From: a phage
DNA length: 16,567 nucleotides
NCBI GenBank assembly: GCA_021031555.1
Contig: GCA_021031555.1_4954.2
Reading direction: 5' to 3' (one strand)
Position numbers and translations under genes: made by a program. Positions 288 through 15,161 of the stretch are shown in pieces. The stretch's first letter is position 1. The number at the start of each line of letters is the position of its first letter. The notes below the pieces were generated by a model. It had not been told where the DNA came from and did not search any database. It saw nothing but the letters and a program-made list of their open reading frames with translations.

Positions 288-923
288 ATGAAAATTTCAG
301 ACCGGGCTAAAAGGGCTGCTCTGGAGTTGTCGCCGGAACAGCTCAAATTCGCCAACCTGTGGTTAGATCGTGTCAATAACGGTTACAGCAATACGCGATG
401 CGTTTTAGAGGCTTATCCGGGTCACACGTCTGATGCAGCGGCTGCAACGACCGCACACCGCCTCCTGTCGAATACAAAGGTGTTGAACTATCTGGACGCG
501 ATGGGGAGTCATGCGCTTGAGTCTGTCGGGGAATCGTTAACGAGTCGTGTCGAGTGGTGGAAGCGCGCGGCAAGCACGGCTGAAGAGTTACTGGAACCGT
601 ATTGCCAGCGTGTCATCGTTCCTGGTGAAGACGACACGGAAGCGAAACACCTGTGGGTGAACAGTACCGACGATATCCCAAGCCATCTGCAACAGTACGT
701 AGTTTGCTACAAACGTTACATGCTGGGCGGATACATTCTGGTGACGCGTGAACTGTTCGACCCGAAAACTCGTGCAAAAGCGTCTGAACAACTGGATAAG
801 ATCACCGGGAACAGTATCGACCGTGTGGAACTGTCTGGTGTGGTTGGTAACGTGGTTCAGAGTGTTCCTGAAGGTGCAACTATCGACGACATCGCGCAAC
901 TGTATCAGAAGGCACTTAAATAG
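288..923 (+). CDS. terS: Terminase small subunit (Terminase_2-like N-terminal HTH)
   Basis: ORF 171..923 trimmed to the ATG at 288, which has GGGAGA 7 nt upstream; the 171..272 extension overlaps the repeat region. N-terminus LSPEQLKFANLWL..NGYSNTRCVLEAYPG..AAATTAHRLLSNTKVLNYLDAM fits the small-terminase DNA-binding pattern (LTPKQ..F...YL..N...AA..AGYS....A...SRLL.N..V). Upstream of terL. Confidence 0.7.
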   Translation: MKISDRAKRAALELSPEQLKFANLWLDRVNNGYSNTRCVLEAYPGHTSDAAAATTAHRLLSNTKVLNYLDAMGSHALESVGESLTSRVEWWKRAASTAEELLEPYCQRVIVPGEDDTEAKHLWVNSTDDIPSHLQQYVVCYKRYMLGGYILVTRELFDPKTRAKASEQLDKITGNSIDRVELSGVVGNVVQSVPEGATIDDIAQLYQKALK

Positions 924-930
924 GCGGTTG

Positions 931-968
931 TTCCGGTTTAAATCGTGCCGGAAACCGTTTGCTTTTTC
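931..968 (+). terminator. Putative intrinsic terminator after terS (weak)
   Basis: Hairpin TTCCGG-tttaaatcgtg-CCGGAA followed within 8 nt by the T-rich tract gctttttcg. Confidence 0.3.
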
Positions 969-1019
969 GATAAACAGGGTTAGGTGGTGTTAGGGTGCCG
1001 GATGACATAAGAAAGCCCC

Positions 1020-1220
1020 TTACGAGGCAATCAGCGAGTTTCCAGTAATCAGGTTGAAATTCATGACTCGGTCGTAACACTCTATGTTAACCTTTGCCAT
1101 TACTGTTTCTGAAAGTGAACGATAAACTTTTTCTCTATCGTCAATATTAATGCGCTCCGCTTTTAACAGAGCGCAAATTGCTTCAAATCTTAAAACATCG
1201 CGGCTAAAGTTTTCACACAT
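1020..1220 (-). CDS. Hypothetical protein (66 aa); may be the C-terminal part of a frameshifted gene
   Basis: ORF track. Frame is open upstream to 1250 and overlaps the 3' end of ORF 1190..1402. Confidence 0.4.
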   Translation of the reverse strand: MCENFSRDVLRFEAICALLKAERINIDDREKVYRSLSETVMAKVNIECYDRVMNFNLITGNSLIAS

Positions 1221-1402
1221 GCTCTTAATTTCTCCAGAGTGCTTAAACCATCAGTTTTTGTCTGATTCATGATTTCCAGACGGTCAGCGGGTGTTAAGTA
1301 ACCATTCCAGATATCGTTAGCAATTTCGAGTTTCCCAGCAACATAACCAAATTCAGCGTTTTCTTTTACGATTTTTTCAGCAGTTTCGATTACATTAATC
1401 AT
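1190..1402 (-). CDS. Hypothetical protein (70 aa)
   Basis: ORF 1190..1417 trimmed to the ATG at 1402, preceded by GAGGAACAGGAAA; promoter element 1438..1479 lies directly upstream. Confidence 0.55.
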   Translation of the reverse strand: MINVIETAEKIVKENAEFGYVAGKLEIANDIWNGYLTPADRLEIMNQTKTDGLSTLEKLRACVKTLAAMF

Positions 1403-1437
1403 TTTCCTGTTCCTCACAATTCGTTGTCTATGTGAGT

Positions 1438-1479
1438 AATTTACACGGTCTTGTGTAATCCGTCAAGAATTATTTTAAA
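1438..1479 (-). promoter_or_regulatory. Conserved promoter element copy 1 (minus strand: UP-like AT tract, -35 TTGACG, 17-bp spacer, -10 TAAATT)
   Basis: Minus-strand reading TTTAAAATAATTCTTGACG-GATTACACAAGACCGTG-TAAATT; RBS and ATG (1402) about 30 nt downstream. Confidence 0.6.
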
Positions 1480-1502
1480 TAAAACCCCGGTTAGTTCCGG
1501 GG
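1471..1502 (-). terminator. Putative minus-strand intrinsic terminator abutting promoter copy 1
   Basis: Hairpin CCCCGG-ttagtt-CCGGGG (1485..1502) followed on the minus strand by UUUUAUUUAAAAUA; sits just after the stop of ORF 1512..1847. Confidence 0.45.
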
Positions 1503-1511
1503 TAATGTTCG

Positions 1512-1847
1512 TTATTCGCCCAACGCTTCTTTCAGTAACCGATACGTTTCAGGACATTTACCGGATCCGCGTTCATGTTCATAAGCTGCACTAATAACAT
1601 CCCAGTTTTCGATCACACCTTTAAACGCCGGACACTTTTCAGCAATCAATGGAAAACTGTTTCTGATTTCCGGTACAGCTTCAACCAGGAACCAGCAACG
1701 GCGAAAATCGGAAACGTCCCGTGGTGCACGAAATCCCCATTCGCCACCCATTTCATTACCCGTGTGAATGCAGACCATCGTTTTAGAGCTTAGTCCGGTT
1801 TCACCAGAGCATAACCACTGAATAATACGTTCCTGTTCTGTTTTCAT
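1512..1847 (-). CDS. Hypothetical protein (111 aa)
   Basis: ORF track; GGAGG RBS; start overlaps the stop of the upstream gene (ATGA). Confidence 0.6.
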   Translation of the reverse strand: MKTEQERIIQWLCSGETGLSSKTMVCIHTGNEMGGEWGFRAPRDVSDFRRCWFLVEAVPEIRNSFPLIAEKCPAFKGVIENWDVISAAYEHERGSGKCPETYRLLKEALGE

Positions 1848-2101
1848 TTGTTTCTAGCCTCCATCATTGCATCAGCCAGGATATAAGCACGGGTTGCGTA
1901 TAGTTCTTCATCCGTTTCATCGGGAAATTGTCCACTTAACATTCCCTGTAAAGCAGCAATTGCAAACTGGTCACGAACGGTTAGCGTTTTCTGGTTGATT
2001 TCTTCCAGGGTTTCCGCTGTCTGGAAATGTGACAGGGAATTTTGACCCTCAATTGATTTATAACCTGTATTGTGGTTACGTTCGGCATCGCTACGTGTCA
2101 T
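1844..2101 (-). CDS. Hypothetical protein (85 aa)
   Basis: ORF track; start overlaps the rdgC stop. Confidence 0.6.
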
Positions 2102-3012
2102 CGTTTCGCTTCCCCACCCAAAGCAGTGATAAGTTGTTTGATCAGCGATGCAAGTTCACCTGTCATTAGTACAAAATCAGCGTCGAATCGTGCCAGACTG
2201 TCTTCAAGGTCAATATCGTCGTTCTGGTCGAGCAACTCATCGCAGAATTTCACACGGTTTAACGTCATGCCGTCAGTTAGCGTAAACGTTACCCGCTGCT
2301 GCCAGTCCAGAGCCAGTTTTGTAACGACTTTTCCGGCTTCGATGTGCGTTGCGATTTCATCACTGGTTAAATCCTGTTTTTTAACGCGTGCAACACCGCC
2401 ATCAGTCAGGATCGCTTTCAGTTCAGCAGAATCACCCATTGTGAAACCTGCTGGCGCGTTTCCTGAACGTACCCACTCCGTTGTTGTCAGTTCAACAGGG
2501 TTTTCAGTTGTCAGTGGGACTACAGGCAGACTACCCAGGGATTTACGCAACAGTGCTAACGCATCTTCAGCTCGTTTAGCACTGGACGCATCAACCACGA
2601 CCAACCCGTTAGTGATATCAATCCACAACTGTGTACGACTGTTTTTAACGAATGCGCGTGGTAACAGGCTGTGCAATACTTCATCTTTCAGGCTGTCTTT
2701 CTCTGTTTTCTTCAGTTTACGCGCCTGTTCCGCTTCCAGTTTGGCGATTCGCGCGTTCAGATGCTGTTTAATGACCGGACCAGGAATAATCTTTTCCTGT
2801 TTCTGGATGGTCAGCAGATATTGCCCGTTAGCCTGGTGAACCAGCGTATGATGTTGTTCAGTTGCCGGAATCCATCCAGTACGCGCCATATCCTGTGAAC
2901 CACATGGGGTAAACCGGAAAGGTAGCAACTGTTGTTCGATGGTTGCCAGTTGTGCCATCAGCGACATAGGATTACTGATGCGGTAGATAATTGCATTTTT
3001 GAAGAAGTTCAT
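2098..3012 (-). CDS. rdgC: Recombination-associated protein RdgC family
   Basis: 304 aa, the length of bacterial RdgC; N-terminal [26 protein letters not shown] and the internal [30 protein letters not shown] block match RdgC as I recall it. AGGTG RBS. Confidence 0.85.
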
Positions 3013-3036
3013 GTTTACACCTGTTTAAAGTTGTGA

Positions 3037-3071
3037 TTCAGATAGTCAACCAAAACGATTGACTATCTGAA
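3037..3071. promoter_or_regulatory. Perfect 13-bp inverted repeat TTCAGATAGTCAA-N9-TTGACTATCTGAA
   Basis: Seen directly in the sequence between ORF 3088..3510 and the rdgC start; no U-tract on either side, so operator or RNA-processing hairpin rather than a classic terminator. Confidence 0.45.
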
Positions 3072-3087
3072 AAGTAAACCAATCTGG

Positions 3088-3510
3088 TTAGGCATCACGT
3101 TCAACCGTAATCCCATCAAAGTTCAGTTTTTCACCGATTTTCATTTCTGAAATTTTATCAAATTGATCATCTGTCCAATCTGTCATGTGATATACACCAA
3201 CTAACGACAAACCTTTGTCCTCTGCTGAAATATAACCAGCACTTTCATCACGGGTCGTATAGCGTTTCATAATCTTTTCCTGTTCGTTAAAAGTAGCGAC
3301 AATACGCGGTAAATGGTTTTGAATTTCCAGTGACCAAACACCACGCACTTTGGTTAATTTCCACGTTACACCGTCTTTTTCGTCGTCCGGGATAAATACA
3401 CCGTCGTCTTTATAGATAGCGTTGTACGTCTCACCTACCGTGAACCACGGGCAAGCTTTATGCACCGTTAAACAGGTGAATCCAGTCGGTAAAGTTTTCA
3501 CGATAGCCAA
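3088..3510 (-). CDS. Hypothetical protein (140 aa)
   Basis: ORF track. Confidence 0.6.
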   Translation of the reverse strand: MAIVKTLPTGFTCLTVHKACPWFTVGETYNAIYKDDGVFIPDDEKDGVTWKLTKVRGVWSLEIQNHLPRIVATFNEQEKIMKRYTTRDESAGYISAEDKGLSLVGVYHMTDWTDDQFDKISEMKIGEKLNFDGITVERDA

Positions 3511-3647
3511 TACCTCACTAATTCATTTGTCAGGTCTATAAGAGTCATCAAAAAGCTAATGACAAATATTAAACCGCCGATACCAACTACCCACGGTAAA
3601 ACAGCGATAACCCATGATGGTAGTTTTGAAATCAGCCAGAAAATCAT
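3498..3647 (-). CDS. Small hydrophobic membrane protein (49 aa, MIFWLISKLPSWVIAVLPWVVGIGGLIFVISF...)
   Basis: Hand translation; RBS AAGGAACAGGAA before the ATG; below the ORF-track size cutoff. Confidence 0.35.
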   Translation of the reverse strand: MIFWLISKLPSWVIAVLPWVVGIGGLIFVISFLMTLIDLTNELVRYWLS

Positions 3648-3784
3648 TTCCTGTTCCTTCTTTTCTTCGCCTCGCGTTTGGCTTTTGCAATACCTGTTTT
3701 ACGATGTGGTTGTTTACGGTCAGTAATAAGTCGTTGTGGTGGAATACCCCACAACGTGTTAGTGGAACCTAATAATTTAATCAT
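3644..3784 (-). CDS. Small basic protein (46 aa, lysine/arginine-rich C-terminus)
   Basis: Hand translation; stop overlaps the next ATG; no clear RBS. Confidence 0.25.
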   Translation of the reverse strand: MIKLLGSTNTLWGIPPQRLITDRKQPHRKTGIAKAKREAKKRRNRK

Positions 3785-3795
3785 GTAATCTAAGA

Positions 3796-4062
3796 TCATA
3801 CGTTCACCACTTTTAAATCAGGTGTCAGGCTACGATGGTCGTGATGACCGTTCATAGTAAATGAGAAAGTGTAATCGCACTGCTCACCGTCGAATGTGAA
3901 GGGGATTTGAAACCCTGTATCGTCAGTGATGCGAACTTTAACCGGGTATTCAGTTTGCGGATCGACCGCTACAACAGTGCCGAATGGTTTAGATTTGCGA
4001 CGTGCGAGAATTTCTAACAGTCGTGGACTGGTGATTTCTACGTGTTGACCAGTTTTAAACAT
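3796..4062 (-). CDS. Hypothetical protein (88 aa)
   Basis: ORF 3796..4089 trimmed to the ATG at 4062 with GGAG 8 nt upstream; the ATG at 4089 falls inside the promoter. Confidence 0.55.
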   Translation of the reverse strand: MFKTGQHVEITSPRLLEILARRKSKPFGTVVAVDPQTEYPVKVRITDDTGFQIPFTFDGEQCDYTFSFTMNGHHDHRSLTPDLKVVNV

Positions 4063-4094
4063 GGTGATAACTCCAGTTGTTTTACACAAACTGA

Positions 4095-4136
4095 AGTCTA
4101 TCTAATAATGTGTAAACCGTCAAGAATTATTTTAAA
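4095..4136 (-). promoter_or_regulatory. Conserved promoter element copy 2 (-35 TTGACG, -10 TAGACT)
   Basis: Minus-strand TTTAAAATAATTCTTGACG-GTTTACACATTATTAGA-TAGACT; overlaps the 3' end of ORF 4098..4313. Confidence 0.55.
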
Positions 4137-4313
4137 TTGTCCGTCACTGTCTGCAGCGTAACAAATACCGTGACTGTAGATTGTCGCAGTTCGTGTAATG
4201 CGTTGATAGTCTGAGCATTGGTTACGAATACGCAGGTCGTAACCGGACTGTATGATAAGCCAGGTTGCAATGATGGCGAGTAATTTTAAAACGTATCTGA
4301 ACATGTTCCACAC
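4098..4313 (-). CDS. Small signal-anchored or secreted protein (71 aa)
   Basis: ORF track; hydrophobic N-terminus MFRYVLKLLAIIATWLII then a polar region with two Cys; AGGAG RBS. Confidence 0.5.
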   Translation of the reverse strand: MWNMFRYVLKLLAIIATWLIIQSGYDLRIRNQCSDYQRITRTATIYSHGICYAADSDGQFKIILDGLHIIR

Positions 4314-4430
4314 TCCTGTTTGATAGTTTCAGGGTAGTGTGGAACTGGCGAAGATGGTATAGGATTTACGATAATTTAACAGGGGTTTCGACTGGTAAGT
4401 TGTTTATGACTGACTTTTCACCTTTCCCAA

Positions 4431-4526
4431 CTAAGTTCGCATTGCCAGTGCAACAATCAACACCATTAACATTACTCCAACTACCACACCGACTACAAAT
4501 GCACTAACTAAACCAATCAAACTCAT
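4431..4526 (-). CDS. Small hydrophobic peptide (31 aa, MSLIGLVSAFVVGVVVGVMLMVLIVALAMRT)
   Basis: Hand translation; GGAGA RBS 7 nt upstream; ATG overlaps the stop of the upstream ORF. Confidence 0.35.
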   Translation of the reverse strand: MSLIGLVSAFVVGVVVGVMLMVLIVALAMRT

Positions 4527-4810
4527 TTCAATGTCTCCACATGTAACTGCCAGTTTTTAGTAGCATCCTTGCGACGTTTAATCTTTCTACCTAATCCGTG
4601 AGTACCCATTTTTAAAATCGCATGGTTATTTTGTACATCAACCACTTTGTAGAAATAACCACGAGGTGACAACCAAGTCTAACCTACTTCAAAATGTTTA
4701 TCCACTTTTTCAACCCTCCACCCATATTTGGCACGATTCATAGCAGTCCGTTCATCATTCGTTGTGAACAGTACACGCCCGGATTTATGACAAATGTTCC
4801 AAGTCGTCAT
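4523..4810 (-). pseudogene. ORF interrupted by a single in-frame amber codon (TAG at 4679..4681): 43 codons, TAG, 51 codons
   Basis: Hand translation MTTWNICHKSGRVLFTTNDERTAMNRAKYGWRVEKVDKHFEVG*TWLSPRGYFYKVVDVQNNHAILKMGTHGLGRKIKRRKDATKNWQLHVETLK. This falls in an approximately 550-bp stretch (4314..4861) with no ORF of 60 aa or more in the track. Confidence 0.3.
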
Positions 4811-4861
4811 TTTGCTAATACACCATTAATGAAAATTAGCATGTAGAATAAACATTACGGG

Positions 4862-5020
4862 TCATAATTCATAAACCTTAAAACTACTGCCTGAATAGCG
4901 ATGTTTACCACACAACTTACAACGGTGTTCCTGAGTGGCATAGTTACGTTCATCCCCGTGGATAGTACGATATAAATACCATTCGTGTTTGCAGAATAAT
5001 CGTTTGAAAAATATCTTCAT
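4862..5020 (-). CDS. Small Cys/His-rich protein (52 aa, FCKHEW...HRCKLCGKH)
   Basis: Hand translation; ATG overlaps the stop of gene 5020..5214 (TGATG). Confidence 0.35.
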   Translation of the reverse strand: MKIFFKRLFCKHEWYLYRTIHGDERNYATQEHRCKLCGKHRYSGSSFKVYEL

Positions 5021-5214
5021 CAATAACCCCTCCTCGACTGGTAATCAATTTTCTTCAGTGATTGTTGCACAATCTGCCAGGACGATAACATGAATAATTG
5101 CGCATACTGCCCCAGCGCTAAATTTCGTGGTTTATCCTGATAGGCGTAAATGGTCGCAACGTCATCAGCTTCCAGACGGATCCGCCACGGTGTCAGAGTT
5201 GGTTTATCACCCAT
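5020..5214 (-). CDS. Hypothetical protein (64 aa)
   Basis: ORF 5020..5250 begins at a TTG with no RBS; the internal ATG at 5214 has GGAGA about 10 nt upstream. Confidence 0.5.
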   Translation of the reverse strand: MGDKPTLTPWRIRLEADDVATIYAYQDKPRNLALGQYAQLFMLSSWQIVQQSLKKIDYQSRRGY

Positions 5215-5428
5215 GTTCGATGCTCTCCAGTAGTTCACGAATGTTTTCAATTACACATTGTTTTGTCTGAGTAGTGACACACACCCCATCAGTGCGACCA
5301 AACGTATTCAGGACTGTTTGAAGCATATAAGTCGTAAGTTCAGTATTATAAAGTTTTACGAATATTGAAAGGTCACCACCAATTTCAACAGTGTCTACAT
5401 TATCTTCAAAATATGAAAATGTAGTGTC

Positions 5429-5539
5429 TTAAAAATGAACACAGTAAACGGCATTTTGCCCGTATTCAGGTTGTGCATTACGTTCAAGACGAACGGCAAG
5501 AACTTCTTTAAATAATTCGTTGTGGTCTTTAATTTTCAT
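5429..5539 (-). CDS. Small protein (36 aa, MKIKDHNELFKEVLAVRLERNAQPEYGQNAVYCVHF)
   Basis: Hand translation; AGGAG RBS; first ORF downstream of promoter copy 3. Confidence 0.4.
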   Translation of the reverse strand: MKIKDHNELFKEVLAVRLERNAQPEYGQNAVYCVHF

Positions 5540-5571: not shown

Positions 5572-5613
5572 AGTCTGACACCACCTCTGTAATCTGTCAA
5601 GAATTATTTTAAA
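5572..5613 (-). promoter_or_regulatory. Conserved promoter element copy 3 (-35 TTGACA, -10 CAGACT; weakest -10 of the set)
   Basis: Minus-strand TTTAAAATAATTCTTGACA-GATTACAGAGGTGGTGT-CAGACT, in the divergent region between the minus cassette and terL. Confidence 0.5.
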
Positions 5614-5676
5614 TCTCTGTCACCACCAATCACCCATGGTAAACTGTACAGAACAGTTACAAACGGACCGATAATC

Positions 5677-7440
5677 ATGAATAAGTTTACTGGAAATATT
5701 CATAATTACCCGCGCTGGCGTGATGCCTACGCAAATGACGAACGTATCTGGCGAAAAGGTCAGCCACGACCAGATTACAAACAGTGTTACATTGACCGTA
5801 TTAACCTGTTAAATCGTATGCGCACGGATCGGGCAATTGTCCCGGTACTGAAAAAGTATTACGAAACAAACCCGGTAGCGTTTATCCTCGACTGGGCGTT
5901 TACTTATGACCCACGTAACGTTGGTACTGAATATCCGCCAAACATGCCTTTCTGCCTTTTCGAACGTCAAATCGACATGGTTCAGTTTGTTTACGAAGCG
6001 CTTGAAGACAAAGAAAAAGGGCTTTGGGAAAAATCGCGAGACTATGGTGCGACCTGGGTAGCCTGTGGTTTGTCCGTGTGGGCGTGGCTGTATCGTCCTG
6101 GTTCGTCAGTCGGCTGGGGTTCACGTAAAGAACAGCTTGTCGATAAACTGGGCGACCCTGATAGTATTTTTGAAAAGATTCGCCAGATTATCCGTGCATT
6201 ACCGCCGGAATTACGCCCTGTTGGTCTGCGTGAAAAAGACCATCTGGTTTATATGAAATGTATCAACCCAGAAAACGGTGCAACAATTACTGGTGAAGCT
6301 GGCGATAACATCGGTCGTGGTGGTCGTAAATCTGTTTACTTTCTCGATGAGGCAGCACACGTAGATCGTCCTGAACTGATTGAAGCGTCGTTGTCAGCTA
6401 ACACCAACGTCCGTATTGACATCAGTTCAGTCAATGGCGTTGGTAACGTTTTTTATCGTAACCGTAAAGCGGGTCTGGAATGGGAACCGGGTAAGAAATT
6501 ACCTCGTGGTAAATTGCGTGTTATGGTTCTGGACTGGCGTGATCACCCGGCTAAAGATGACGAATGGTATAAACGTGAAAAACAATCGTTCGCCGAAAAA
6601 GGTTTACAGCATATTTTCGCACAGGAAGTTGACCGCGATTATGCCGCTGCTGTTCAGGGTGTACTGATTAAAGCTGAATGGGTACGCGCTGCTTTTGACG
6701 CGTTCCGTGACACAGAATGGCGCAAAGCTAATGGACTACTTACACCAACAGGTCAGCGTATCGCCGGACAGGATGCCGCAGACGGTGGTGAAGACGCAAG
6801 CGCACTGGTAATTGCTCACGGTGTATTCCTGACACATCTGCAACTTGACCACAGGGGCGCTGAACTGGCTGCACCAGGGATGTTGACGATGGCTAATATG
6901 CTGGGTGTTGATGAATACTGGTACGAAGTTAACGGTGTTGGTACAGGCGTTAAAGTAGCGGCAAATGACCGGAAAGATACTCTACGCTTCCGTGTGCGTC
7001 CGTGGTTACCGAACGGAAAAGTGGTGGATCCTGGTGGTGATATTATCGGCGGTACGAAACCTGGCGATAAAGACCGTAAATCAAACAAAGATTATTTCTC
7101 AAATTATAAAGCACAGGCATCGTGGGCGTTACGTTTGCGTTGCCAGCGAATTTATAAATGGTATGTGGAAGGTCAACCACAGGATCCAGACGAAATTATT
7201 CTGATTGACCCGTCACTGGAAAACGCACAACGGTTAGAAGCTGAGTTAAGTCAGCCAACGTATACCAGTAACGGTGCCGGGAAGATTGCGATCGACAAGA
7301 AACCAAACGGTAGTAAGTCACCAAACTTTTTCGATGCTGCGGTTATTGCACTATCACCAAAACGTACCGAATTCGTTGAAGAACCATTTACTGGTGGTGT
7401 GAATCCTGTTGGTACTCCTGAATACGGTGACATTTTTTAA
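5677..7440 (+). CDS. terL: Terminase large subunit
   Basis: 587 aa; deviant Walker-A-like KSRDYGAT, Walker-B-like VYFLDEAAH, then an acidic C-terminal domain consistent with the terminase nuclease domain; sits between terS and the putative portal. Confidence 0.8.
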   Translation: MNKFTGNIHNYPRWRDAYANDERIWRKGQPRPDYKQCYIDRINLLNRMRTDRAIVPVLKKYYETNPVAFILDWAFTYDPRNVGTEYPPNMPFCLFERQIDMVQFVYEALEDKEKGLWEKSRDYGATWVACGLSVWAWLYRPGSSVGWGSRKEQLVDKLGDPDSIFEKIRQIIRALPPELRPVGLREKDHLVYMKCINPENGATITGEAGDNIGRGGRKSVYFLDEAAHVDRPELIEASLSANTNVRIDISSVNGVGNVFYRNRKAGLEWEPGKKLPRGKLRVMVLDWRDHPAKDDEWYKREKQSFAEKGLQHIFAQEVDRDYAAAVQGVLIKAEWVRAAFDAFRDTEWRKANGLLTPTGQRIAGQDAADGGEDASALVIAHGVFLTHLQLDHRGAELAAPGMLTMANMLGVDEYWYEVNGVGTGVKVAANDRKDTLRFRVRPWLPNGKVVDPGGDIIGGTKPGDKDRKSNKDYFSNYKAQASWALRLRCQRIYKWYVEGQPQDPDEIILIDPSLENAQRLEAELSQPTYTSNGAGKIAIDKKPNGSKSPNFFDAAVIALSPKRTEFVEEPFTGGVNPVGTPEYGDIF

Positions 7441-7447: not shown

Positions 7448-7472
7448 GGCGGGATTATTCCCGCCCGTTTTC
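7448..7472 (+). terminator. Intrinsic terminator candidate
   Basis: GGCGGGA-ttat-TCCCGCC followed by CGTTTTC, 8 nt after the terL stop. Confidence 0.5.
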
Positions 7473-7540: not shown

Positions 7541-7566
7541 GCCCCGGAACTGTCCGGGGCTTTTTT
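7541..7566 (+). terminator. Intrinsic terminator
   Basis: GCCCCGGA-actg-TCCGGGGC followed by TTTTTT; preceded by an A-tract, so weak activity on the minus strand is possible. Confidence 0.7.
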
Positions 7567-7939: not shown

Positions 7940-8001
7940 AATACGTTCTGTCACAGGTTCAATAGCCACACTATGCAGAACAAGCACCAGTACGTAACCA
8001 A

Positions 8002-8331: not shown

Positions 8332-8343
8332 GATTATTCTTCC

Positions 8344-8679
8344 TCAGTTACGGATGATACCGTTGACGGAATGTGAATTAGTACATGACTTTGTAGTAAT
8401 ATTTCCATTAACTGTTTCGATATTACCACTATCCCCAGTAACAGAAACATTACCATTAACCGTTTTGATATTTCCACTGTTTCCTGAAATGTTAACGTCA
8501 CCGTTAGTCGTTTCAATGGATTCAACATCACCATAAACACTGATCGATATGTTACCAACCAGATTACCATCAACCTGTATGCCATCAACAATTACTTTAT
8601 CACCGTTAATTTCAAATTTACGTCCTGTAAATTCCCTACCGTCAATTATTACTTTACCGTTTCTCATATTTATTTTCAT
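8344..8679 (-). CDS. Beta-solenoid-like repeat protein (111 aa)
   Basis: ORF track; tandem degenerate repeats GNIKTVNGNVSVTGDSGNIETVNGNITT rich in G, N, V, I, T; start overlaps the upstream stop (ATGA). Confidence 0.6.
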   Translation of the reverse strand: MKINMRNGKVIIDGREFTGRKFEINGDKVIVDGIQVDGNLVGNISISVYGDVESIETTNGDVNISGNSGNIKTVNGNVSVTGDSGNIETVNGNITTKSCTNSHSVNGIIRN

Positions 8680-8987
8680 TTAACTGTCTCCGGTACAAAC
8701 CACATTGACGCGAGATACGCACACCCGGCAATTTTATGTTCGTGTTTAGGTTCGAAACTACCCAGAATTACATTGATGTGTGCATGGGCCTGTTTAAAGT
8801 TCACACCGTTAACAGCAACTGCGTATTCTTTCAGACCATTGAAAAACCATTTGCTAACCCACTGATTCCACGGGTTAGAATTTTCAAAAAATTCTTTCGG
8901 AATACTACCCATCGCCGGGAGAAATTCAGCAATGTTTTTAGGTCCAAAAGCAATATCCAGTTGTGTAATATTTTCATTCGGTTTCAT
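8676..8987 (-). CDS. Hypothetical protein (103 aa)
   Basis: ORF 8676..9011 trimmed to the ATG at 8987 with AAGGGTGA RBS; the ATG at 9011 falls at the predicted transcription start. Confidence 0.6.
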   Translation of the reverse strand: MKPNENITQLDIAFGPKNIAEFLPAMGSIPKEFFENSNPWNQWVSKWFFNGLKEYAVAVNGVNFKQAHAHINVILGSFEPKHEHKIAGCAYLASMWFVPETVK

Positions 8988-9018: not shown

Positions 9019-9059
9019 AGCATAATCGCACGTTTGCAATTCGTCAAGAATTATTTTAA
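9019..9059 (-). promoter_or_regulatory. Conserved promoter element copy 4 (-35 TTGACG, -10 TATGCT)
   Basis: Minus-strand TTAAAATAATTCTTGACG-AATTGCAAACGTGCGAT-TATGCT. Confidence 0.6.
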
Positions 9060-9081: not shown

Positions 9082-9090
9082 TGATATAAC
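9082..9090 (+). promoter_or_regulatory. Candidate extended -10 (TGATATAAC) upstream of the portal gene
   Basis: TGnTATAAC about 40 nt upstream of the ATG at 9130; a near-identical TGATATAAT precedes the head-morphogenesis gene. Confidence 0.3.
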
Positions 9091-9129: not shown

Positions 9130-10485
9130 ATGGCTGATCAACAATTCGAACAACTAGCCGTTGCCGGGTACAGTCGAACAGGCAACCAGGTAAACGACGA
9201 TTTTCTTCCTAAACTAAACGGTAAACAAGGCCGTCGTATTCTTCGTCAGATGGCTGAGAACGACGAAACTATTGGCGGTGTGTTATTCGCCATGAGTAGC
9301 GTTTATCGTTCTGTACAGTGGATTTTTGACCCGTCTGACAAAGATGATCCAGAAGCTATTCGTTATTCAGAATGGTTGCAGGACGCTATTGAAAATAAAA
9401 TGGGTGATCCGCGTGGTGCACTCCCGGACGATACCTGGTCCGCGTTCGTTCAGACATGGACAGACGTTGATGTATTCGGCTGGGGTTGGTATGACATCTG
9501 GGTCAAAGACCTTGATGATGGTACGGTGGGTATTGCCCGTCTGGTTCCTGTAGCACCTGAAACGCTTGCTGGTTGGGATATTGAAGAACCGACAGGTTAT
9601 GTTCGTGGTATTTATCAACGTTCACCTAACCAGGGTACAACGACGTTAATCACGCGTGATCGTTCGCTTCATTTGATTTCAAGTCCGAATAAAGGTAACC
9701 CGGAAGGTTTATCACTGCTGCGCACAGCTTATCGTCCGTGGTACTACAAAAAAGTGAATATGGAAATCGAATCCATACTTGCCGAACGTGGTACAGGGTT
9801 CCCGGTAATTACTGTTAACGCAGATATTAAAAAAGCGGCTAATGATCCTAATGTTCCTGAACAACAGCGTCAGGCAGCACAGGCGATGATTGATAACTAT
9901 GAAAACATCGTCGCTAATATCAAACGCAATGAACAATCAGGACTGGTGATTTATTCTAAACCGTATATCACGGGTTATGATAACGAAACAGGTGTTACCA
10001 CATATGGTGGTGAACAACAGGTGAAACTGGAATTTGTTACACCTAACCAGACCAGTTCTGTGGATATTGACCGGACGATTAAACGCCTGGATACCAGTAT
10101 TGCTCGCGCATTACTGGCAGATTTCATGTTTTTCGGAACGGGTGGTAATACCGGGAATAACGCTAACCTGGGTAGTCGTACTGAACTGTGGATCCGCGCA
10201 ATGCAATCACGTATTGATAGCATTGTAGAATGTGTTAATCGTCAGTTGATACCGCAGTTATGGTCGTTAAACGCATTTCCTGATGAATACCGCCCGTCGA
10301 TTCGCGCCGGGTCAATCAGTAAAGATAGTATTGAAACATTGACTACGGCACTTGCTCGTTTAGCACAAGCTGGCGCACCTGTATTCCCAGATCCAGACCT
10401 TCAGGAATACGTATATAAAGAGGCGGGTCTACCTATTACGGGAATTGATAAAGCAGGGGACGGATTACCGTCTATTGACGACTGA
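9130..10485 (+). CDS. Putative portal protein
   Basis: 451 aa ORF with GGAG RBS, placed between terL and the head-morphogenesis gene; assignment rests on size and position only. Confidence 0.5.
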   Translation: MADQQFEQLAVAGYSRTGNQVNDDFLPKLNGKQGRRILRQMAENDETIGGVLFAMSSVYRSVQWIFDPSDKDDPEAIRYSEWLQDAIENKMGDPRGALPDDTWSAFVQTWTDVDVFGWGWYDIWVKDLDDGTVGIARLVPVAPETLAGWDIEEPTGYVRGIYQRSPNQGTTTLITRDRSLHLISSPNKGNPEGLSLLRTAYRPWYYKKVNMEIESILAERGTGFPVITVNADIKKAANDPNVPEQQRQAAQAMIDNYENIVANIKRNEQSGLVIYSKPYITGYDNETGVTTYGGEQQVKLEFVTPNQTSSVDIDRTIKRLDTSIARALLADFMFFGTGGNTGNNANLGSRTELWIRAMQSRIDSIVECVNRQLIPQLWSLNAFPDEYRPSIRAGSISKDSIETLTTALARLAQAGAPVFPDPDLQEYVYKEAGLPITGIDKAGDGLPSIDD

Positions 10486-10488: not shown

Positions 10489-10520
10489 AAAAAGGGACCA
10501 GTAACGGTCCCTTAATTTTA
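10489..10520. terminator. Bidirectional intrinsic terminator between convergent genes
   Basis: aaaaaGGGACC-agtaac-GGTCCCttaatttt: A-tract, 6-bp GC stem, T-tract, so U-rich on both strands; between the portal stop (10485) and the stop of the minus gene (10518). Confidence 0.65.
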
Positions 10521-10850
10521 CTTAGTTTCAGGTTGCACGATTGACAGTAATTTACTCGCTTCATCAACCGCAGTCTGAATACGAGTCTGTAACGGATAAC
10601 TGTTGTTGATCGCACGTTCCAGCGTTTTATCAAGCAGTTGCAGTTTGACTTCATCATCGCCAGTGAACGCGTACATATCAGCAACGACCTCCTTAAACTG
10701 TGATGCTTGCTCAACAATAGTCGTGGTTACAATGTATTTCCAGACTTTGTTAAGTAGTTTAAATTTCACTTCGTTGTCAGCAACTGCATCAACCAGAATT
10801 TCAGCAGCAGTCTTGTCATATTTAACAAGCTCAAGAATTTCAAAACGCAT
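10518..10850 (-). CDS. Hypothetical protein with an internal duplication (110 aa)
   Basis: ORF track; AGGAGA RBS; internal repeat DNEVKFKLLNKV / DDEVKLQLLDKT. Confidence 0.6.
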   Translation of the reverse strand: MRFEILELVKYDKTAAEILVDAVADNEVKFKLLNKVWKYIVTTTIVEQASQFKEVVADMYAFTGDDEVKLQLLDKTLERAINNSYPLQTRIQTAVDEASKLLSIVQPETK

Positions 10851-10865
10851 TTAAGTCTTCTCCTG

Positions 10866-11210
10866 TCAGTTAACATACTTCGCGATCAGTTTATCACAGT
10901 CCTCGCGACAGGTAGCATACTTAAACAGGTCACTTGCTGCTTCTGCCCGGTAGTCAGTATCAATGGTGTAATGTTCATTGACATAGTTATAGGCTGCAAG
11001 ATAATTGCTGAACATCCCCGTGGTTACCACTTTCGGTTGTTCCCTTACGACCTTACCGTTAAACAGATATGCGATTAACAGAATCAGACCACCGATCACA
11101 GGACTTGTGAGAAATGCGATAAAGAACCATACACCAGGGTTACGACCTGTTTGTTTGGCAACACCCGCGACAACCAGAGAGAAAAGAACCCATAAAATAG
11201 CGAATGACAT
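10866..11210 (-). CDS. Membrane protein, two N-terminal TM helices plus soluble C-terminal domain (114 aa)
   Basis: ORF track; AAGGAGG RBS; first gene after promoter copy 5. Confidence 0.6.
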   Translation of the reverse strand: MSFAILWVLFSLVVAGVAKQTGRNPGVWFFIAFLTSPVIGGLILLIAYLFNGKVVREQPKVVTTGMFSNYLAAYNYVNEHYTIDTDYRAEAASDLFKYATCREDCDKLIAKYVN

Positions 11211-11240
11211 GATTGTGTCCTCCTTTGTTTTGATGTTTGT

Positions 11241-11282
11241 AGGTTACACGTCCTTGTGTAATCCGTCAAGAATTATTTTAAA
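11241..11282 (-). promoter_or_regulatory. Conserved promoter element copy 5 (-35 TTGACG, -10 TAACCT)
   Basis: Minus-strand TTTAAAATAATTCTTGACG-GATTACACAAGGACGTG-TAACCT; overlaps the stop codon of ORF 11273..11521. Confidence 0.55.
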
Positions 11283-11521
11283 TTATCGTAGACCGGCGGT
11301 AAGCCCATTGCGACCTGTACAGACCGTTTTTCATATTCCTCCCGAAGTTTCTGAAGCTGTTCAATACCGATGTCACAACCACGCATAATATCAGCGCACA
11401 GGTCGTTGTAGGTCGCTTCAGATTGCTTGCTGTGTGGGTAATCAACACAGGATGGATCTGCAATAATGACTTTCGGCAGATATGCGACAGTATCGCCCAT
11501 TGCGTTCTTAAATATCGTCAT
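11273..11521 (-). CDS. Hypothetical protein (about 82 aa)
   Basis: ORF 11273..11530 begins at a GTG; the ATG at 11521 follows the upstream stop by 2 nt. Confidence 0.5.
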   Translation of the reverse strand: MTIFKNAMGDTVAYLPKVIIADPSCVDYPHSKQSEATYNDLCADIMRGCDIGIEQLQKLREEYEKRSVQVAMGLPPVYDNLK

Positions 11522-11523
11522 AG

Positions 11524-11985
11524 TTAGCACCCGTGATTAAGTTCCTGACCTGGTTGAACACGAGTACCACAATATTTACAAACATAGCGCCACTCAAAAC
11601 CGGGCATTGCTAACACTTTACGATAACCAGCATCATAAATTTGTTTTGCAGAATTAAGAGGATCTACACCATTGTGATCGATGATTTGCAAAATTTCATC
11701 AATAGCCTTTTCACGTTCTTTCGGAATAGGTCTGAAGTTTTCCGCGTTACCTACAATAAACGATTGTGTACCGTCATCAGGCTTTAACCATATATCATCA
11801 CCATGGTAACCTAATACCGTCACCTTCACCCAATCGTGATCAACGCTTGCTAACCACTCGCATACTGTACCGACAGGTGGTAAACCTTCACCATCCCATT
11901 GTTGTTTTTCATTCACACAGTCAGGACAAATACCATATTTTTGGTCACTGTTATCACGCGTGTGTTTTTCACAAAAACTTTTCAT
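11524..11985 (-). CDS. Zinc-ribbon-like protein with a WDG-LPPVG domain (153 aa)
   Basis: ORF track; N-terminal CEKH..CPDC and C-terminal CKYCG Cys pairs; central WDGEGLPPVGTVCEWLASVDHDWVKVTVLGY resembles the protein at 15158..15388. Confidence 0.6.
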   Translation of the reverse strand: MKSFCEKHTRDNSDQKYGICPDCVNEKQQWDGEGLPPVGTVCEWLASVDHDWVKVTVLGYHGDDIWLKPDDGTQSFIVGNAENFRPIPKEREKAIDEILQIIDHNGVDPLNSAKQIYDAGYRKVLAMPGFEWRYVCKYCGTRVQPGQELNHGC

Positions 11986-12311
11986 AAATACGACCCTATG
12001 ATTGCTGCACAGTTGACGATTGCTAAACGCGTTGCTTTTTCACGGTCTTCCCCGTGGCTAACTGGTTGCTTATAACTAACGCCAGTGTCAGGGTTATTAA
12101 CCGTCACTTCGTTGTCACGAATATCCAGATCCATGTACATGTTAACCATCAGACTGAAAGCATCCTCATTACGTGTAAGAGGGTTCCACAGACGACCATT
12201 GCCTATATCAATACCTTCGTTTATGTAACGTTCGTCGTACGCGACGTAATATTTACCATGGATTTCAGCAGCCCGTGCTGCGTTGACTAATAAATCACGA
12301 TTGTTCATCAT
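11982..12311 (-). CDS. Hypothetical protein (109 aa)
   Basis: ORF track; start overlaps the dut stop. Confidence 0.6.
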   Translation of the reverse strand: MMNNRDLLVNAARAAEIHGKYYVAYDERYINEGIDIGNGRLWNPLTRNEDAFSLMVNMYMDLDIRDNEVTVNNPDTGVSYKQPVSHGEDREKATRLAIVNCAAIIGSYL

Positions 12312-12811
12312 ACCCGTCCTGTTGATCCAAACCCGCCATTACGCTGACTATCAACATCTGGTAATTCTTCCACTTCAACCAAGTTAACAGGTTCAACACG
12401 TTCAACCATAAGCTGACAAACACGTTCACCGTCTGCGATGGTCTGTAATTTCTGCCCGTGGTTAGTCAGCGTAACGTAGTATTCTTCTTTGTAATCACGA
12501 TCACCGATACCCACGCAGTTGATCAGTGACAAACCGTGTTTAAGACTCATGCCGGAACGTGGATAGAATTTAATGCAATATCCGCTATCAACTGACATTT
12601 TCAGACCAGTGGGGATCATAGCGCGGTCGCCGGGCCATAATGCGATTGTTCCTGCAACAACCGGACGTTCCACTTTAGCGCCTGATTCTGTGAATATAGT
12701 TACCGATTCTTCCCACAGGCAAGCACGAACGTCTAACCCTGCGCTGTCTGGTGTTGCACGTGTCGGAAGTTCAGCGTGGGGTGTTAGTTTTTTTATATAC
12801 AGGTTAGTCAT
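12308..12811 (-). CDS. dut: dUTP pyrophosphatase (dUTPase)
   Basis: 167 aa with the five dUTPase motifs in order: SAGLDVRA, PRSGMSLKHGL, GIGDRDYKEEY, RVCQLMV, RNGGFGSTG; GAGGA RBS. Confidence 0.9.
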   Translation of the reverse strand: MTNLYIKKLTPHAELPTRATPDSAGLDVRACLWEESVTIFTESGAKVERPVVAGTIALWPGDRAMIPTGLKMSVDSGYCIKFYPRSGMSLKHGLSLINCVGIGDRDYKEEYYVTLTNHGQKLQTIADGERVCQLMVERVEPVNLVEVEELPDVDSQRNGGFGSTGRV

Positions 12812-12845: not shown

Positions 12846-12888
12846 ATGTTAGTGTGGTCGCTTGCAATGTATCAAGAATTATTTTAAA
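12846..12888 (-). promoter_or_regulatory. Conserved promoter element copy 6 (-35 TTGATA, -10 TAACAT with 18-bp spacer)
   Basis: Minus-strand TTTAAAATAATTCTTGATA-CATTGCAAGCGACCACAC-TAACAT; drives dut. Confidence 0.5.
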
Positions 12889-12918: not shown

Positions 12919-13662
12919 ATGATGTTTGAACAACCGTGGAACATACCTGTATATGATGCTGAAAGTGAAAAACAATCACTTGACTATCGAATGAAAACAC
13001 AACAAGTAGACTGGAGTGAAGCGCCAGACTGGGCTACATGTGTTGTTCTTAATAAAACAACAAACACTTTTGCATGGTCTGACGGTTCAATGTACGCACC
13101 AATTTTAAGAAATCCACCACAAATTATGGAGAATGCTGATGACTTTGAAATCTTTGAAAAACGCTCTTGTGGTCCAGCAACACCTATCAAAACAAAACTG
13201 TTAATGACACCGAAAGCCCGTGGTAACACTTATGAAGAATTCATCGCAACCGGGTGGAACGACGACCAGTTAGTCGAACATGGTTATGCTGTTCGCACCA
13301 ATGATGAAATAACAAAATATGAACAACAGTCATTGGCAGACTTACACCTGGCACATCTATTCACACCTGTTCAACAACCGTCAACAGCGTCTGATTTACT
13401 GAAACAGGCTGAACAGTTACTGACAGAACGTGGTAAGCAGTATGACACGTCTGGTCAGGAACGTTCGTCAGCTAAAATCGTTGCTGCGTTTAACACAATT
13501 ACCGGGCGTGACTTAACACCAGGTGAAGGGTGGTTGTTTCTGATGTTGTTAAAAGCGGTTCGTTTCTATTCCAATACTGAAACACCACATCGTGACAGTC
13601 TGGAAGACCTGATCAGCTACGCTGCATTACACGCAGAGGAATATCTTAACGATGAACGGTGA
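12919..13662 (+). CDS. Hypothetical protein (247 aa)
   Basis: ORF track; GAGGAATAA RBS. C-terminal third (GKQYDTSG...LFLMLLKAVRF...DSLEDLISYAALHAEEY) loosely resembles small all-alpha nucleotide-pyrophosphohydrolase-type domains; unverified. Confidence 0.55.
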   Translation: MMFEQPWNIPVYDAESEKQSLDYRMKTQQVDWSEAPDWATCVVLNKTTNTFAWSDGSMYAPILRNPPQIMENADDFEIFEKRSCGPATPIKTKLLMTPKARGNTYEEFIATGWNDDQLVEHGYAVRTNDEITKYEQQSLADLHLAHLFTPVQQPSTASDLLKQAEQLLTERGKQYDTSGQERSSAKIVAAFNTITGRDLTPGEGWLFLMLLKAVRFYSNTETPHRDSLEDLISYAALHAEEYLNDER

Positions 13663-13834
13663 ACAAGCATTCGACCTTCTGGTCAAATACGACATTATTG
13701 TTATTCACTGTGACCGTGAACAGATCGTTTTTACAGATAATCTTCGTTATGAAGAACCTTATGACGGTGATAAACGGTCTGCCACGATTCGGTTAATCGA
13801 ACGTGTGGCACGTGACAGAGGGGAACTATTATAA
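13652..13834 (+). CDS. Hypothetical protein (60 aa)
   Basis: ORF track; GAGGAA about 12 nt upstream; overlaps the upstream gene end. Confidence 0.45.
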   Translation: MNGEQAFDLLVKYDIIVIHCDREQIVFTDNLRYEEPYDGDKRSATIRLIERVARDRGELL

Positions 13835-14028
13835 TGGTTCAAACTATTTCTGAATTACTACCCACCGTTTATGGCAACGTAACAGAACTTGCCAGGCGGA
13901 TTGGGTGTAACAAAGCGACAGTTTATAAATATATGGATGACACCAACGGTGAATTTCACGCAGTAGTGAATGGTAAGTTGATGGTCAGACCCGGTTTTAA
14001 AGGACGTTATACTCGTGACAAAAGATGA
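13834..14028 (+). CDS. Small helix-turn-helix DNA-binding protein (64 aa)
   Basis: ORF track; HTH-like TELARRIGCNKATVYKYM; GAGGGGAA RBS; start overlaps the upstream stop (TAATG). Confidence 0.55.
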   Translation: MVQTISELLPTVYGNVTELARRIGCNKATVYKYMDDTNGEFHAVVNGKLMVRPGFKGRYTRDKR

Positions 14029-14158
14029 AAAATTATTACGTGAACTTGAAATAGACTACGAACGAGCACAAAAAGCGTTACAGTTTCTGGAAGAACAGAT
14101 CCGCGAAGTTAAGAACCGCATTCAGGGAACTGAAAAACGTAATCTTCCACGCCCGTAA
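14015..14158 (+). CDS. Possible small coiled-coil ORF (47 aa, GTG start)
   Basis: Hand translation VTKDEKLLRELEIDYERAQKALQFLEEQIREVKNRIQGTEKRNLPRP; overlaps the 3' end of the HTH gene in another frame; weak RBS. Confidence 0.25.
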   Translation: MTKDEKLLRELEIDYERAQKALQFLEEQIREVKNRIQGTEKRNLPRP

Positions 14159-14162
14159 CACG

Positions 14163-14171
14163 TGATATAAT
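14163..14171 (+). promoter_or_regulatory. Candidate extended -10 promoter TGATATAAT
   Basis: Exact TGnTATAAT; predicted start site falls inside the left arm of the terminator hairpin at 14174..14201. Confidence 0.35.
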
Positions 14172-14173
14172 CG

Positions 14174-14201
14174 GCCTCAGTGTGTTAACTGAGGCTTTTT
14201 T
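14174..14201 (+). terminator. Intrinsic terminator whose 3' arm contains the RBS of the next gene
   Basis: GCCTCAGT-gtgtta-ACTGAGGC followed by TTTTTT and then ATG at 14202; the GAGG Shine-Dalgarno is part of the 3' stem arm. Confidence 0.65.
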
Positions 14202-15161
14202 ATGGCTACTAAAGACCCATACCCAGATATTTCAGACAAATATGATGCTCGCATTCGTGAAGCACTTGATGTTGTGTGGGAAAACGTGCGTCGTAGTGAG
14301 TCGTTAGCTAACCTGGAATACATCATTGAAACTCAGGGTATTACCGGATTACTCCCAATTCTTGAAACACTCCCTGATGAACTTAGTGCACAGTTGCGTC
14401 CGGTTATTGAAGATGCGATCGCCGAATCAGGTCGTGTAGTCGTTCAGGTTCTACCGAAAGCGGCTGTGACAGGTCCGGTTGTGTTCAGTCTGGTCACCCC
14501 ACAGGTCAGTACATACATCAACAACTATGTCGGACAACTGATCCGTGAAGTCAGTGATGAAACAGTCAAAGCTGTTCAGATTGCTGTTAACCAGGGTGTG
14601 GTAACCGGACGAAATCCGCGTCAGATAGCCCGTGATTTTCGATCGTCAATAGGGTTAACCACACGGCAGGAAATGACGGTTCAACGTCTGCGATCAGCAC
14701 TGGAAAAAGGTGAAGCAGGTTATATAAACAGTCTGACCACTGTTACAGACAGTGCGAAGAACGCTGTAAGTGCCGGGAAACTATCACAGGCGAAGATTGA
14801 CCAGATAATCGAACAGACACGTTTACGTTACGTAAAACAGCGCACAGAAACAATAGCGCGTACTGAATCACTTCGTGCTGTATCCGTTGGTCAGGACCAG
14901 GCAATACGTCAGGGACAGATTACCGGGACTATTAGTAATGAATTGCTGAAGCGCTGGTTATATAGAAAGGATGGTCGGACACGTGATGCGCATATTTCCA
15001 CAGGTGAAACGAACGGCTGGATACCAATGGACAGACCGTTTTCAACGCCGTTAGGACCACTTATGTTCCCTCGTGATCCTAACGGTAGTGCCGCGAACGT
15101 GATTAATTGCCGTTGCAGGGTACAGTACAGTTTACCGGAAGATATAGGTTCGTTGGGTTAA
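14202..15161 (+). CDS. Head morphogenesis protein, Mu F / SPP1 gp7 family
   Basis: 319 aa; C-terminal region RTESLRAVSVGQ...W..RKDGRTRDAH...NVINCRCRVQY fits the Mu-F-like signature (R.TE...W...D.RTR..H...NCRC). Confidence 0.75.
   Translation: MATKDPYPDISDKYDARIREALDVVWENVRRSESLANLEYIIETQGITGLLPILETLPDELSAQLRPVIEDAIAESGRVVVQVLPKAAVTGPVVFSLVTPQVSTYINNYVGQLIREVSDETVKAVQIAVNQGVVTGRNPRQIARDFRSSIGLTTRQEMTVQRLRSALEKGEAGYINSLTTVTDSAKNAVSAGKLSQAKIDQIIEQTRLRYVKQRTETIARTESLRAVSVGQDQAIRQGQITGTISNELLKRWLYRKDGRTRDAHISTGETNGWIPMDRPFSTPLGPLMFPRDPNGSAANVINCRCRVQYSLPEDIGSLG

Follow-up and report, generated by a model that had tools for sequence, protein, structure and literature searches.

Virulent siphophages related to Salmonella phage 9NA are said to share synteny while being mosaic, as a comparative paper by Zeng et al. 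reportedly described in 2019. The 9NA lineage is virulent; 9NA itself is reported to use pac-site headful packaging of a circularly permuted chromosome and carries many small novel genes interspersed among its assembly genes (Casjens et al. 2014). Here we analyzed a stretch of 16,567 nucleotides (nt), contig GCA_021031555.1_4954.2 of GenBank assembly GCA_021031555.1 (hereafter the window), in which the rightward packaging and head genes (terS, terL, the portal gene and the Mu-F-like gene, MuF) are interleaved with four leftward cassettes of small genes. A megablast search against phage records identified 27 genomes related to the window, the best match being vB_EcoS_PJ16, which infects Escherichia coli (95.2% identity, 73% of the window covered). 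Salmonella phage 9NA matched at 82.3% identity over 64%, and further relatives included AVIO78A, KarinMuster (Bas82), the Salmonella phages Solent, Sergei and Sasha, and Klebsiella phages near 80%. Because of these relatives, we assign the window to the left arm (16.5 kb) of a virulent siphophage of the 9NA-like group (Nonanavirus/Sashavirus). Both the nucleotide similarity to the type members and the order terS-terL-portal-MuF with interspersed small genes are consistent with this assignment. Neither an integrase nor a repressor was found among the proteins of the window, which covers <30% of a genome; tRNAs were likewise not found in it, and an Rfam scan of the window at gathering thresholds gave no matches. 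The interleaved layout is an already known hallmark of the 9NA-like group, partly described in 2014, and its discovery value is little, since all annotated 9NA-like genomes display the architecture and the 2014 description already gave its essence. We propose, with a probability of roughly 0.8, that the virion genes of 9NA-like phages do not form one operon but are interleaved with leftward accessory operons, with separate promoters in both directions.

Rightward virion genes and leftward cassettes

The original prediction, made from the letters of the window, placed the four packaging and head genes on the plus strand, about 4.7, 1.7 and 3.7 kb apart. Measured distances were 4753 nt (terS-terL), 1689 nt (terL-portal) and 3716 nt (portal-MuF), and matches in Pfam, PHROG and the PDB supported terL, portal and MuF as morphogenesis genes, with terS only probable (Table 1). 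The nuclease domain of terL matches those of solved large terminases of the Sf6/P22 type (E about 1e-10), and the match of MuF to Phage_Mu_F (E = 1.2e-10) exceeds the Pfam cut-off. The identity of terS is the weakest of the four calls: its orthologues carry a terS annotation in Sasha, Solent, PJ16 and Carvaje, searches of Pfam, NCBIfam and PDB sequences returned nothing for the protein, and its single-sequence AlphaFold model (mean predicted local distance difference test score 59) gave noise and no usable fold match in a Foldseek comparison with the PDB.

The four cassettes comprise 30 minus-strand open reading frames (ORFs; 14, 5, 6 and 5 in cassettes 1–4). These ORFs are, on comparative evidence, real genes under purifying selection, since their ratios of nonsynonymous to synonymous substitution rates (dN/dS) against 9NA and Carvaje orthologues range from 0.03 to 0.37, most (26/30) match a PHROG or Pfam family, and the sign of the GC skew flips block by block along the window. 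Long plus-strand ORFs across the gaps were not found in the window. The cassettes have a lower GC content (41.4%) than the four late genes (47.3%), and a function was recognised for only two of the minus-strand genes, RdgC in cassette 1 (Pfam E = 1.7e-116, also NCBIfam) and dUTPase in cassette 3. The prediction that each gap is filled by minus-strand genes thus stands as far as the ORFs are concerned, but the portal-MuF gap is only about 60% minus-strand, given that 12919–14158 lies on the plus strand. Likewise, all four predicted antisense cassettes are present, although the fourth lies almost wholly beyond position 15161, where the predicted region ended. One gene of cassette 3 (11524–11985, minus strand) and one of cassette 4 (15158–15388, minus strand) are paralogous in their N-terminal domain (KQxWDGxxLPPVG...; 41 amino acids aligned at 54% identity, E = 2e-7), and both match phrog_3483 and phrog_7798; the shared domain suggests duplication or exchange between the two cassettes.

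The annotated genomes of PJ16, AVIO78A, Solent, Sasha, 9NA, Klebsiella phage Carvaje and Proteus phage PmiS-Isfahan (whose portal is 61% identical in amino acids) have the same alternation of plus- and minus-strand blocks, as do eleven IMG/VR contigs. Misassembly, which the original prediction had named as a possible refutation, is excluded, since >17 independent genomes and contigs share the layout. The proposed synteny comparison also answered whether the cassettes are variable insertions: their sites and orientation are fixed, and their content is mosaic. Among relatives, the gaps vary from 0.9 to 5.5 kb (terS-terL), 1.6 to 5.7 kb (terL-portal) and 3.0 to 4.9 kb (portal-MuF), and in the first of them Sasha has 3 genes and Solent about 16; tblastn searches of each record revealed a patchy presence and absence of cassette genes. 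Three ORFs of the window (3088–3510, 3498–3647 and 8344–8679) are without counterpart among the eight annotated relatives used for comparison; the last recurs in IMG/VR contig L013. A 2.5-kb plus-strand cassette with its own copy of the promoter repeat described below follows terL in most relatives, among them 9NA (L002, 5829–6940), PJ16 (L001, about 6540–8536), Solent and Sasha. It is absent from the window (7441–7565) and from contigs L013–L015, and its presence varies even among phages with at least 98% identical portal proteins. Because junctions and orientation are fixed and genes turn over, we suggest that the cassettes behave as moron-like modules at permissive module boundaries. The cassette sites evidently tolerate gain and loss, which would make them natural payload sites for engineering this phage group.

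More distant relatives were compared as well. Vibrio phages with 41–43% identical portal proteins still have spread late genes, with terL-portal inserts on the plus strand. By contrast, portal and MuF are only 58–550 nt apart in 44 distant metagenomic contigs (portal 28–32% identical), compared with 3.0–8 kb in this clade, so the split state is derived. The premise that these genes are usually contiguous therefore applies to portal and MuF in the 44 distant contigs, but not within this lineage. On this comparison, the enterobacterial clade has long had the split state, with sites and orientation fixed and content fluid. An apparent adjacency of terS and terL in contig L018 (IMGVR_UViG_3300022758_000167) was considered as evidence of a contiguous ancestor and rejected, the contig being inverted and truncated. 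At 2800–8400 of this contig, terS together with cassette 1 is inverted and fused into terL at residue 191. This reflects either an assembly error in the metagenome or a genuine rearrangement, and the latter would destroy terL.

Predicted promoters and terminators of the interleaved units

The leftward units share a promoter-like repeat, which is the window's strongest feature. Seven exact copies of the 16-mer TCAAGAATTATTTTAA occur in the window (1463, 4120, 5597, 9044, 11266, 12872 and 16434), all in the minus sense, compared with 0.41 expected by chance. Aligned on the minus strand, the element consists of the tract TTTAAAATAATTC, a −35 hexamer TTGAC(G/A), the motif GATT(A/G)CA, a spacer of 17 nt in total and a −10 hexamer TAnnnT. 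The tract (12/13 bases A/T) adjoins the −35 hexamer and is invariant across copies; a tract so placed might act as an UP-like element, a kind that stimulates transcription by way of the RNA polymerase alpha subunit. The hexamers and their spacing (17 ± 1 nt) agree with a sigma70 promoter, the −10 hexamer reading TAnnnT in 6/7 copies and CAGACT in the seventh. The divergent intergenic regions hold four copies, one at the head of each cassette, and the other three copies are internal; seven leftward units are therefore predicted in the window, including three in cassette 1 (from 5597, 4120 and 1463) and two in cassette 3 (from 12872 and 11266). Start codons downstream of the copies fit the positions where PHROG and tblastn alignments begin. 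The promoter element that the original prediction had ascribed to each cassette can thus be identified with these seven exact copies, whose aligned −35 and −10 hexamers head the leftward units.

The repeat is kept in PJ16, 9NA and Carvaje and has a degenerate form in PmiS-Isfahan. Across 17 related loci, 101/113 copies oppose late genes, but phylogenetically these are not independent copies. Elsewhere in the complete genome of PJ16, the repeat stands before the leftward helicase/DNA-polymerase operon and before two rightward groups of non-structural genes. Because it precedes replication operons there, we infer that the repeat is a strong promoter for host RNA polymerase, of a non-structural and probably early class. 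A full-text literature search for the promoter core AATAATTCTTGAC found no paper, and the invariant repeat represents a compact candidate strong-promoter part.

Two copies overlap other features. Copy 2 sits within the 3' end of the upstream ORF 4098–4313, and the invariant 16-mer would therefore double there as coding sequence and promoter. Copy 6 (12846–12887) overlaps a possible plus-strand promoter (TTGCAA at 12862–12867, 17 nt spacer, TAAACT at 12885–12890), whose TAAACT is kept in Solent, Sasha, 9NA and PJ16; the promoters of cassette 3 and of the DUF6378/NinH block would possibly compete for the same 45 bp. In PmiS-Isfahan, a plus-strand copy of the repeat precedes the block equivalent to 12919–14158.

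Folding confirmed hairpins at the three sites where the original prediction had placed terminators, but the one at 14173–14196 parts the plus-strand block from MuF and bounds no antisense cassette. GenBank annotations of AVIO78A, Solent and Sasha mark several of these terminators and promoters: AVIO78A names the equivalent of 10492–10513 a bidirectional terminator, and Solent and AVIO78A have a terminator at the equivalent of 1484–1503. No hairpin separates MuF from the last gene of cassette 4; the two genes converge and their ends overlap by 4 nt, in line with the direct convergent overlap that had been predicted. At the 3' ends of cassettes 2 (toward terL) and 4 (toward MuF), no minus-strand terminator was found. 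Given the bidirectional and the weak minus-strand hairpins, transcription of cassette 3 is probably kept out of the portal gene, and that of cassette 1 partly out of terS; no such barrier is predicted to protect terL and MuF against antisense read-through from cassettes 2 and 4. Rho classically acts on untranslated antisense RNA in E. coli and usually truncates it, so this read-through could be short. The heavy antisense traffic across the late genes that the original prediction envisaged is thus only partly plausible.

Rightward transcription may restart within the divergent intergenic regions. Boxes resembling TGnTAWAMT stand 31–40 nt before terL, portal and MuF (Table 1), and the candidates at terL and MuF have TGn followed by a TATAAT-like hexamer. 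The terL box is conserved in PJ16, AVIO78A, Solent, Sasha, 9NA and Carvaje, and CCCGTGGTAAACTGT upstream of terL is kept in all enterobacterial relatives, as CACTGATATAAC upstream of portal and GTGATATAAT upstream of MuF are in enterobacterial relatives. Before MuF, the box reads TGATATAAT in Escherichia and Salmonella phages, TGATACAAT in Klebsiella, TGGTAAACT in Proteus, and TGTTATACT or TGCTACAAT in Vibrio phages. Both box types recur in PJ16 at the same distance before the tape-measure (CCCGTGTTAAACTGT) and holin (CACTGATATAAT) genes, with the box CCCGTGnTAAACTGT located 45 nt before the tape-measure gene. Because these boxes look like extended −10 promoters without a −35 hexamer, each late gene probably restarts from its own promoter.

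The candidate MuF box directly abuts the hairpin at 14173–14196, whose 3' arm forms the MuF Shine-Dalgarno sequence (GAGG). Among relatives, the stem of this hairpin is invariant and its loop variable; save for one G-U pair the stem does not change, and the search for covariation therefore gave no compensatory evidence either way. Relative L020 (15598–15655) keeps the hairpin without its T run, so the hairpin may do more than terminate transcription. Transcription starting about 7 nt past the box would begin inside the left arm, and promoter-initiated RNA could therefore not form the stem. In that case, transcripts from the NinH block would terminate and promoter-initiated ones would escape.

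Taken together, leftward units of small accessory or DNA-metabolism genes would each start at one conserved promoter element, and would end at terminators (1484–1503, 1015–1028 and 10492–10513) or converge on the preceding late gene, cassette 2 running into terL and cassette 4 into MuF. Rightward, terL, portal and MuF would restart from weak extended −10 promoters in the divergent intergenic regions, and plus-strand terminators after terL, portal and the NinH block would keep rightward transcripts from neighbouring units.

Iteron-like 16-mers (TA[AG]T[AG]CA-N4-GTGNA) lie near both ends of the window (15–53, 164–225 and 16445–16540). In the 57.7-kb PJ16 genome, they are almost confined to two long non-coding regions, one upstream of terS (57470–57756 plus 1–323) and the other upstream of the head-gene block (17444–17956), which have the exact 26-mer CATAGATTTCGTCATGTTTATTTTTT in common. 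The 16-kb packaging/portal/MuF segment is therefore bracketed by two copies of a repeat-rich element, which could represent a pac site, an origin or regulator binding sites.

Table 1. Predicted features of the 16,567-nt window, with positions counted from its first nucleotide
Feature	Position	Strand	Details	Basis
terS, probable small terminase subunit	288..923	+	211 amino acids	phrog_51 (E=4.5e-11); orthologue annotation
terL, large terminase subunit	5677..7440	+	587 amino acids	PHROG terminase large subunit (E=6e-17)
Portal protein	9130..10485	+	451 amino acids	Pfam Portal_Mu (E=6.6e-24); phrog_113 (E=5.5e-66)
MuF, Mu-F-like head morphogenesis protein	14202..15161	+	319 amino acids	Pfam Phage_Mu_F (E=1.2e-10); phrog_2468 (E=1.8e-70)
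Rightward non-structural block	12919..14158	+	DUF6378 protein, 60-amino-acid ORF, NinH, 47-amino-acid ORF	Pfam/PHROG searches
Cassette 1	1020..5539	-	14 ORFs including RdgC (2098–3012)	ORFs, PHROG matches, dN/dS
Cassette 2	7566..8987	-	5 small genes without known function	ORFs, PHROG matches, dN/dS
Cassette 3	10518..12811	-	6 genes including dUTPase (12308–12811)	ORFs, family matches, dN/dS
Cassette 4	15158..16233	-	5 small genes	ORFs, PHROG matches
Promoter repeat copy 1	1438..1478	-	A/T tract, TTGACG, 17 nt spacer, TAAATT	Scan, alignment
Promoter repeat copy 2	4095..4135	-	TTGACG, 17 nt spacer, TAGACT	Scan, alignment
Promoter repeat copy 3, head of cassette 1	5572..5612	-	TTGACA, 17 nt spacer, CAGACT	Alignment
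Promoter repeat copy 4, head of cassette 2	9019..9059	-	TTGACG, 17 nt spacer, TATGCT	Scan, alignment
Promoter repeat copy 5	11241..11281	-	TTGACG, 17 nt spacer, TAACCT	Alignment
Promoter repeat copy 6, head of cassette 3	12846..12887	-	TTGATA, 18 nt spacer, TAACAT	Scan, alignment
Promoter repeat copy 7, head of cassette 4	16409..16449	-	TTGACG, 17 nt spacer, TATCTT	Scan, alignment
Candidate extended −10 promoter, terL	5637..5645	+	TGGTAAACT, 32 nt before ATG	Conservation
Candidate extended −10-like element, portal	9082..9090	+	TGATATAAC	Kept in all enterobacterial relatives
Candidate extended −10 promoter, MuF	14163..14171	+	TGATATAAT	Conservation
Weak terminator-like hairpin, 3' end of cassette 1, facing terS	1015..1028	-	−10.5 kcal/mol	Folding
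Terminator-like hairpin within cassette 1, directly upstream of promoter copy 1	1484..1503	-	−13.5 kcal/mol, U-rich tail	Folding
First hairpin after terL	7448..7466	+	GGCGGGATTATTCCCGCC then CGTTTTC, −14.7 kcal/mol	Folding
Strong intrinsic terminator	7541..7560	+	−17.5 kcal/mol, U6 tail; no U tail on minus strand	Folding
Bidirectional terminator, portal/cassette 3	10492..10513	both	−14.1 and −13.6 kcal/mol, U5 tail on minus strand	Folding
Hairpin between plus-strand block and MuF	14173..14196	+	−15.9 kcal/mol, z=−5.2, U6 tail	Folding

Alternative explanations

Several observations weigh against separately promoted, interleaved operons. Promoter use, strength and timing are all inferred from sequence, and the tentative labels 'early' and 'late' derive only from gene content and from the repeat before the PJ16 replication operons. 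One plus-strand copy of the repeat in PJ16 stands directly upstream of the rightward head-gene block, so the repeat class is not purely 'antisense early'. Generic sigma70 promoter and terminator counts over the window are no higher than the shuffled expectation, which leaves the specific repeat and its position as the evidence. TGnTAWAMT matches in the window (2 on the plus and 3 on the minus strand) are about at chance level, and position and conservation are therefore what supports the boxes, the conservation coming in large part from genomes that are close relatives. With no −7 T, the portal box TGATATAAC is weaker evidence, and terS is identified by one PHROG match plus annotation.

Three other explanations were weighed against interleaved operons. 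Contig misassembly or inversion, or spurious minus-strand ORFs over a continuous plus-strand late operon, has next to no probability: the scrambled contig L018 shows that metagenomic contigs of this kind can be rearranged, yet order and orientation are identical in the >17 independently sequenced isolates and contigs, purifying selection acts on the minus-strand ORFs, which fall into phage protein families, and the GC skew flips with each block, with no long plus-strand ORFs across the gaps. A single late promoter driving one long rightward transcript with lambda-Q-like antitermination, the extended −10 boxes being fortuitous, appears improbable. In its favour, plus-strand terminators stand after terL, after portal and immediately before MuF, and the repeat-rich non-coding regions of several hundred nt before terS and the head block could hold a master late promoter. 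However, TGnTAWAMT boxes stand at the same distance before five late genes, and Proteus and Vibrio phages keep the one before MuF; no Q-like antiterminator was found among the window proteins or in the PJ16 annotation, and a 16-kb RNA would meet seven opposing promoters.

Orientation itself might instead serve as a regulatory timer, in which strong early leftward promoters hold terL and MuF off through interference or antisense RNA until they are shut off; the MuF leader, with its promoter abutting the hairpin, may add a second layer. We regard this as doubtful, though less so than a single late transcript. Orientation and position are conserved despite content turnover, even at 61% portal identity; terL and MuF have no minus-strand terminator to stop cassettes 2 and 4; the rightward promoters seem weak, with an extended −10 and no −35; and the promoter pair at 12846–12890 physically overlaps. 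Yet only some late genes would be affected, portal being shielded by the bidirectional terminator and terS by the weak minus-strand one, and Rho is generally expected to shorten untranslated antisense RNA. Nor is the orientation obligatory, as 9NA, PJ16 and Solent have a plus-strand cassette with the same promoter type between terL and cassette 2, and the terL-portal inserts of the Vibrio relatives are also on the plus strand. If true, the timer would offer a clean case, found in nature, of a virulent phage's programme being organised by transcriptional interference, and it would be directly testable, as KarinMuster (Bas82) grows on an E. coli K-12 derivative.

Comparison with known systems

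Morons are defined as extra DNA between otherwise adjacent genes, with their own promoter and terminator and a differing GC content (PMC3594210). The cassettes resemble lambdoid morons such as HK97 gene 15 in position, autonomy and GC content: they are inserted between genes that are adjacent in relatives, differ in GC content, and have predicted promoters and terminators of their own, except that cassettes 2 and 4 have no terminator. Expression from a repressed prophage to the benefit of the host, a further property of morons, does not apply to a virulent lineage with no lysogeny genes in the window. Unlike lambdoid morons, the cassettes are multi-gene operons of a virulent phage, at ancient fixed sites and with one phage-wide promoter type in place of a foreign promoter for each. 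Because the prophage property is missing and the units hold several genes behind a phage-wide promoter, we call them moron-like and not classical morons. In PJ16 (L007, 8424–9350), the tail assembly chaperone and tape-measure genes are separated by an antisense cassette of two genes that has its own copy of the promoter repeat. Gene 15 of HK97, the original moron, occupies this site, and one gene of the PJ16 cassette carries an annotation as superinfection immunity protein.

In phage T4, early and late units alternate on opposite strands. The Pseudomonas phages LUZ19, PAK_P3 and phiKZ have antisense transcription units over structural genes (PMC10914365). The window likewise has structural and non-structural units on alternating strands, here read from the genes alone, but unlike in T4-type interleaving its units are small and lie inside the packaging/head module itself. 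A phage sigma factor, a phage RNA polymerase and a T4-type late promoter (TATAAATA) were not recognised in the window. With the pR/pL interference switch of coliphage 186, the window shares the convergent geometry alone.

The closest parallels are found among relatives. Vibrio phages of the 1.282.A type (portal 41–43% identical) resemble the window in their spread terL, portal and MuF genes, a minus-strand cassette after portal and an extended −10 box before MuF, but their terL-portal inserts are on the plus strand and the 9NA-type promoter repeat is absent, so that their arrangement looks like an intermediate state. With the 9NA-like phages (Nonanavirus, Sashavirus, Carvajevirus and, more distantly, the Gorganvirus PmiS-Isfahan), the window shares gene order and orientation, the four cassette sites, the promoter repeat and the terminator positions, the difference being only in cassette content.

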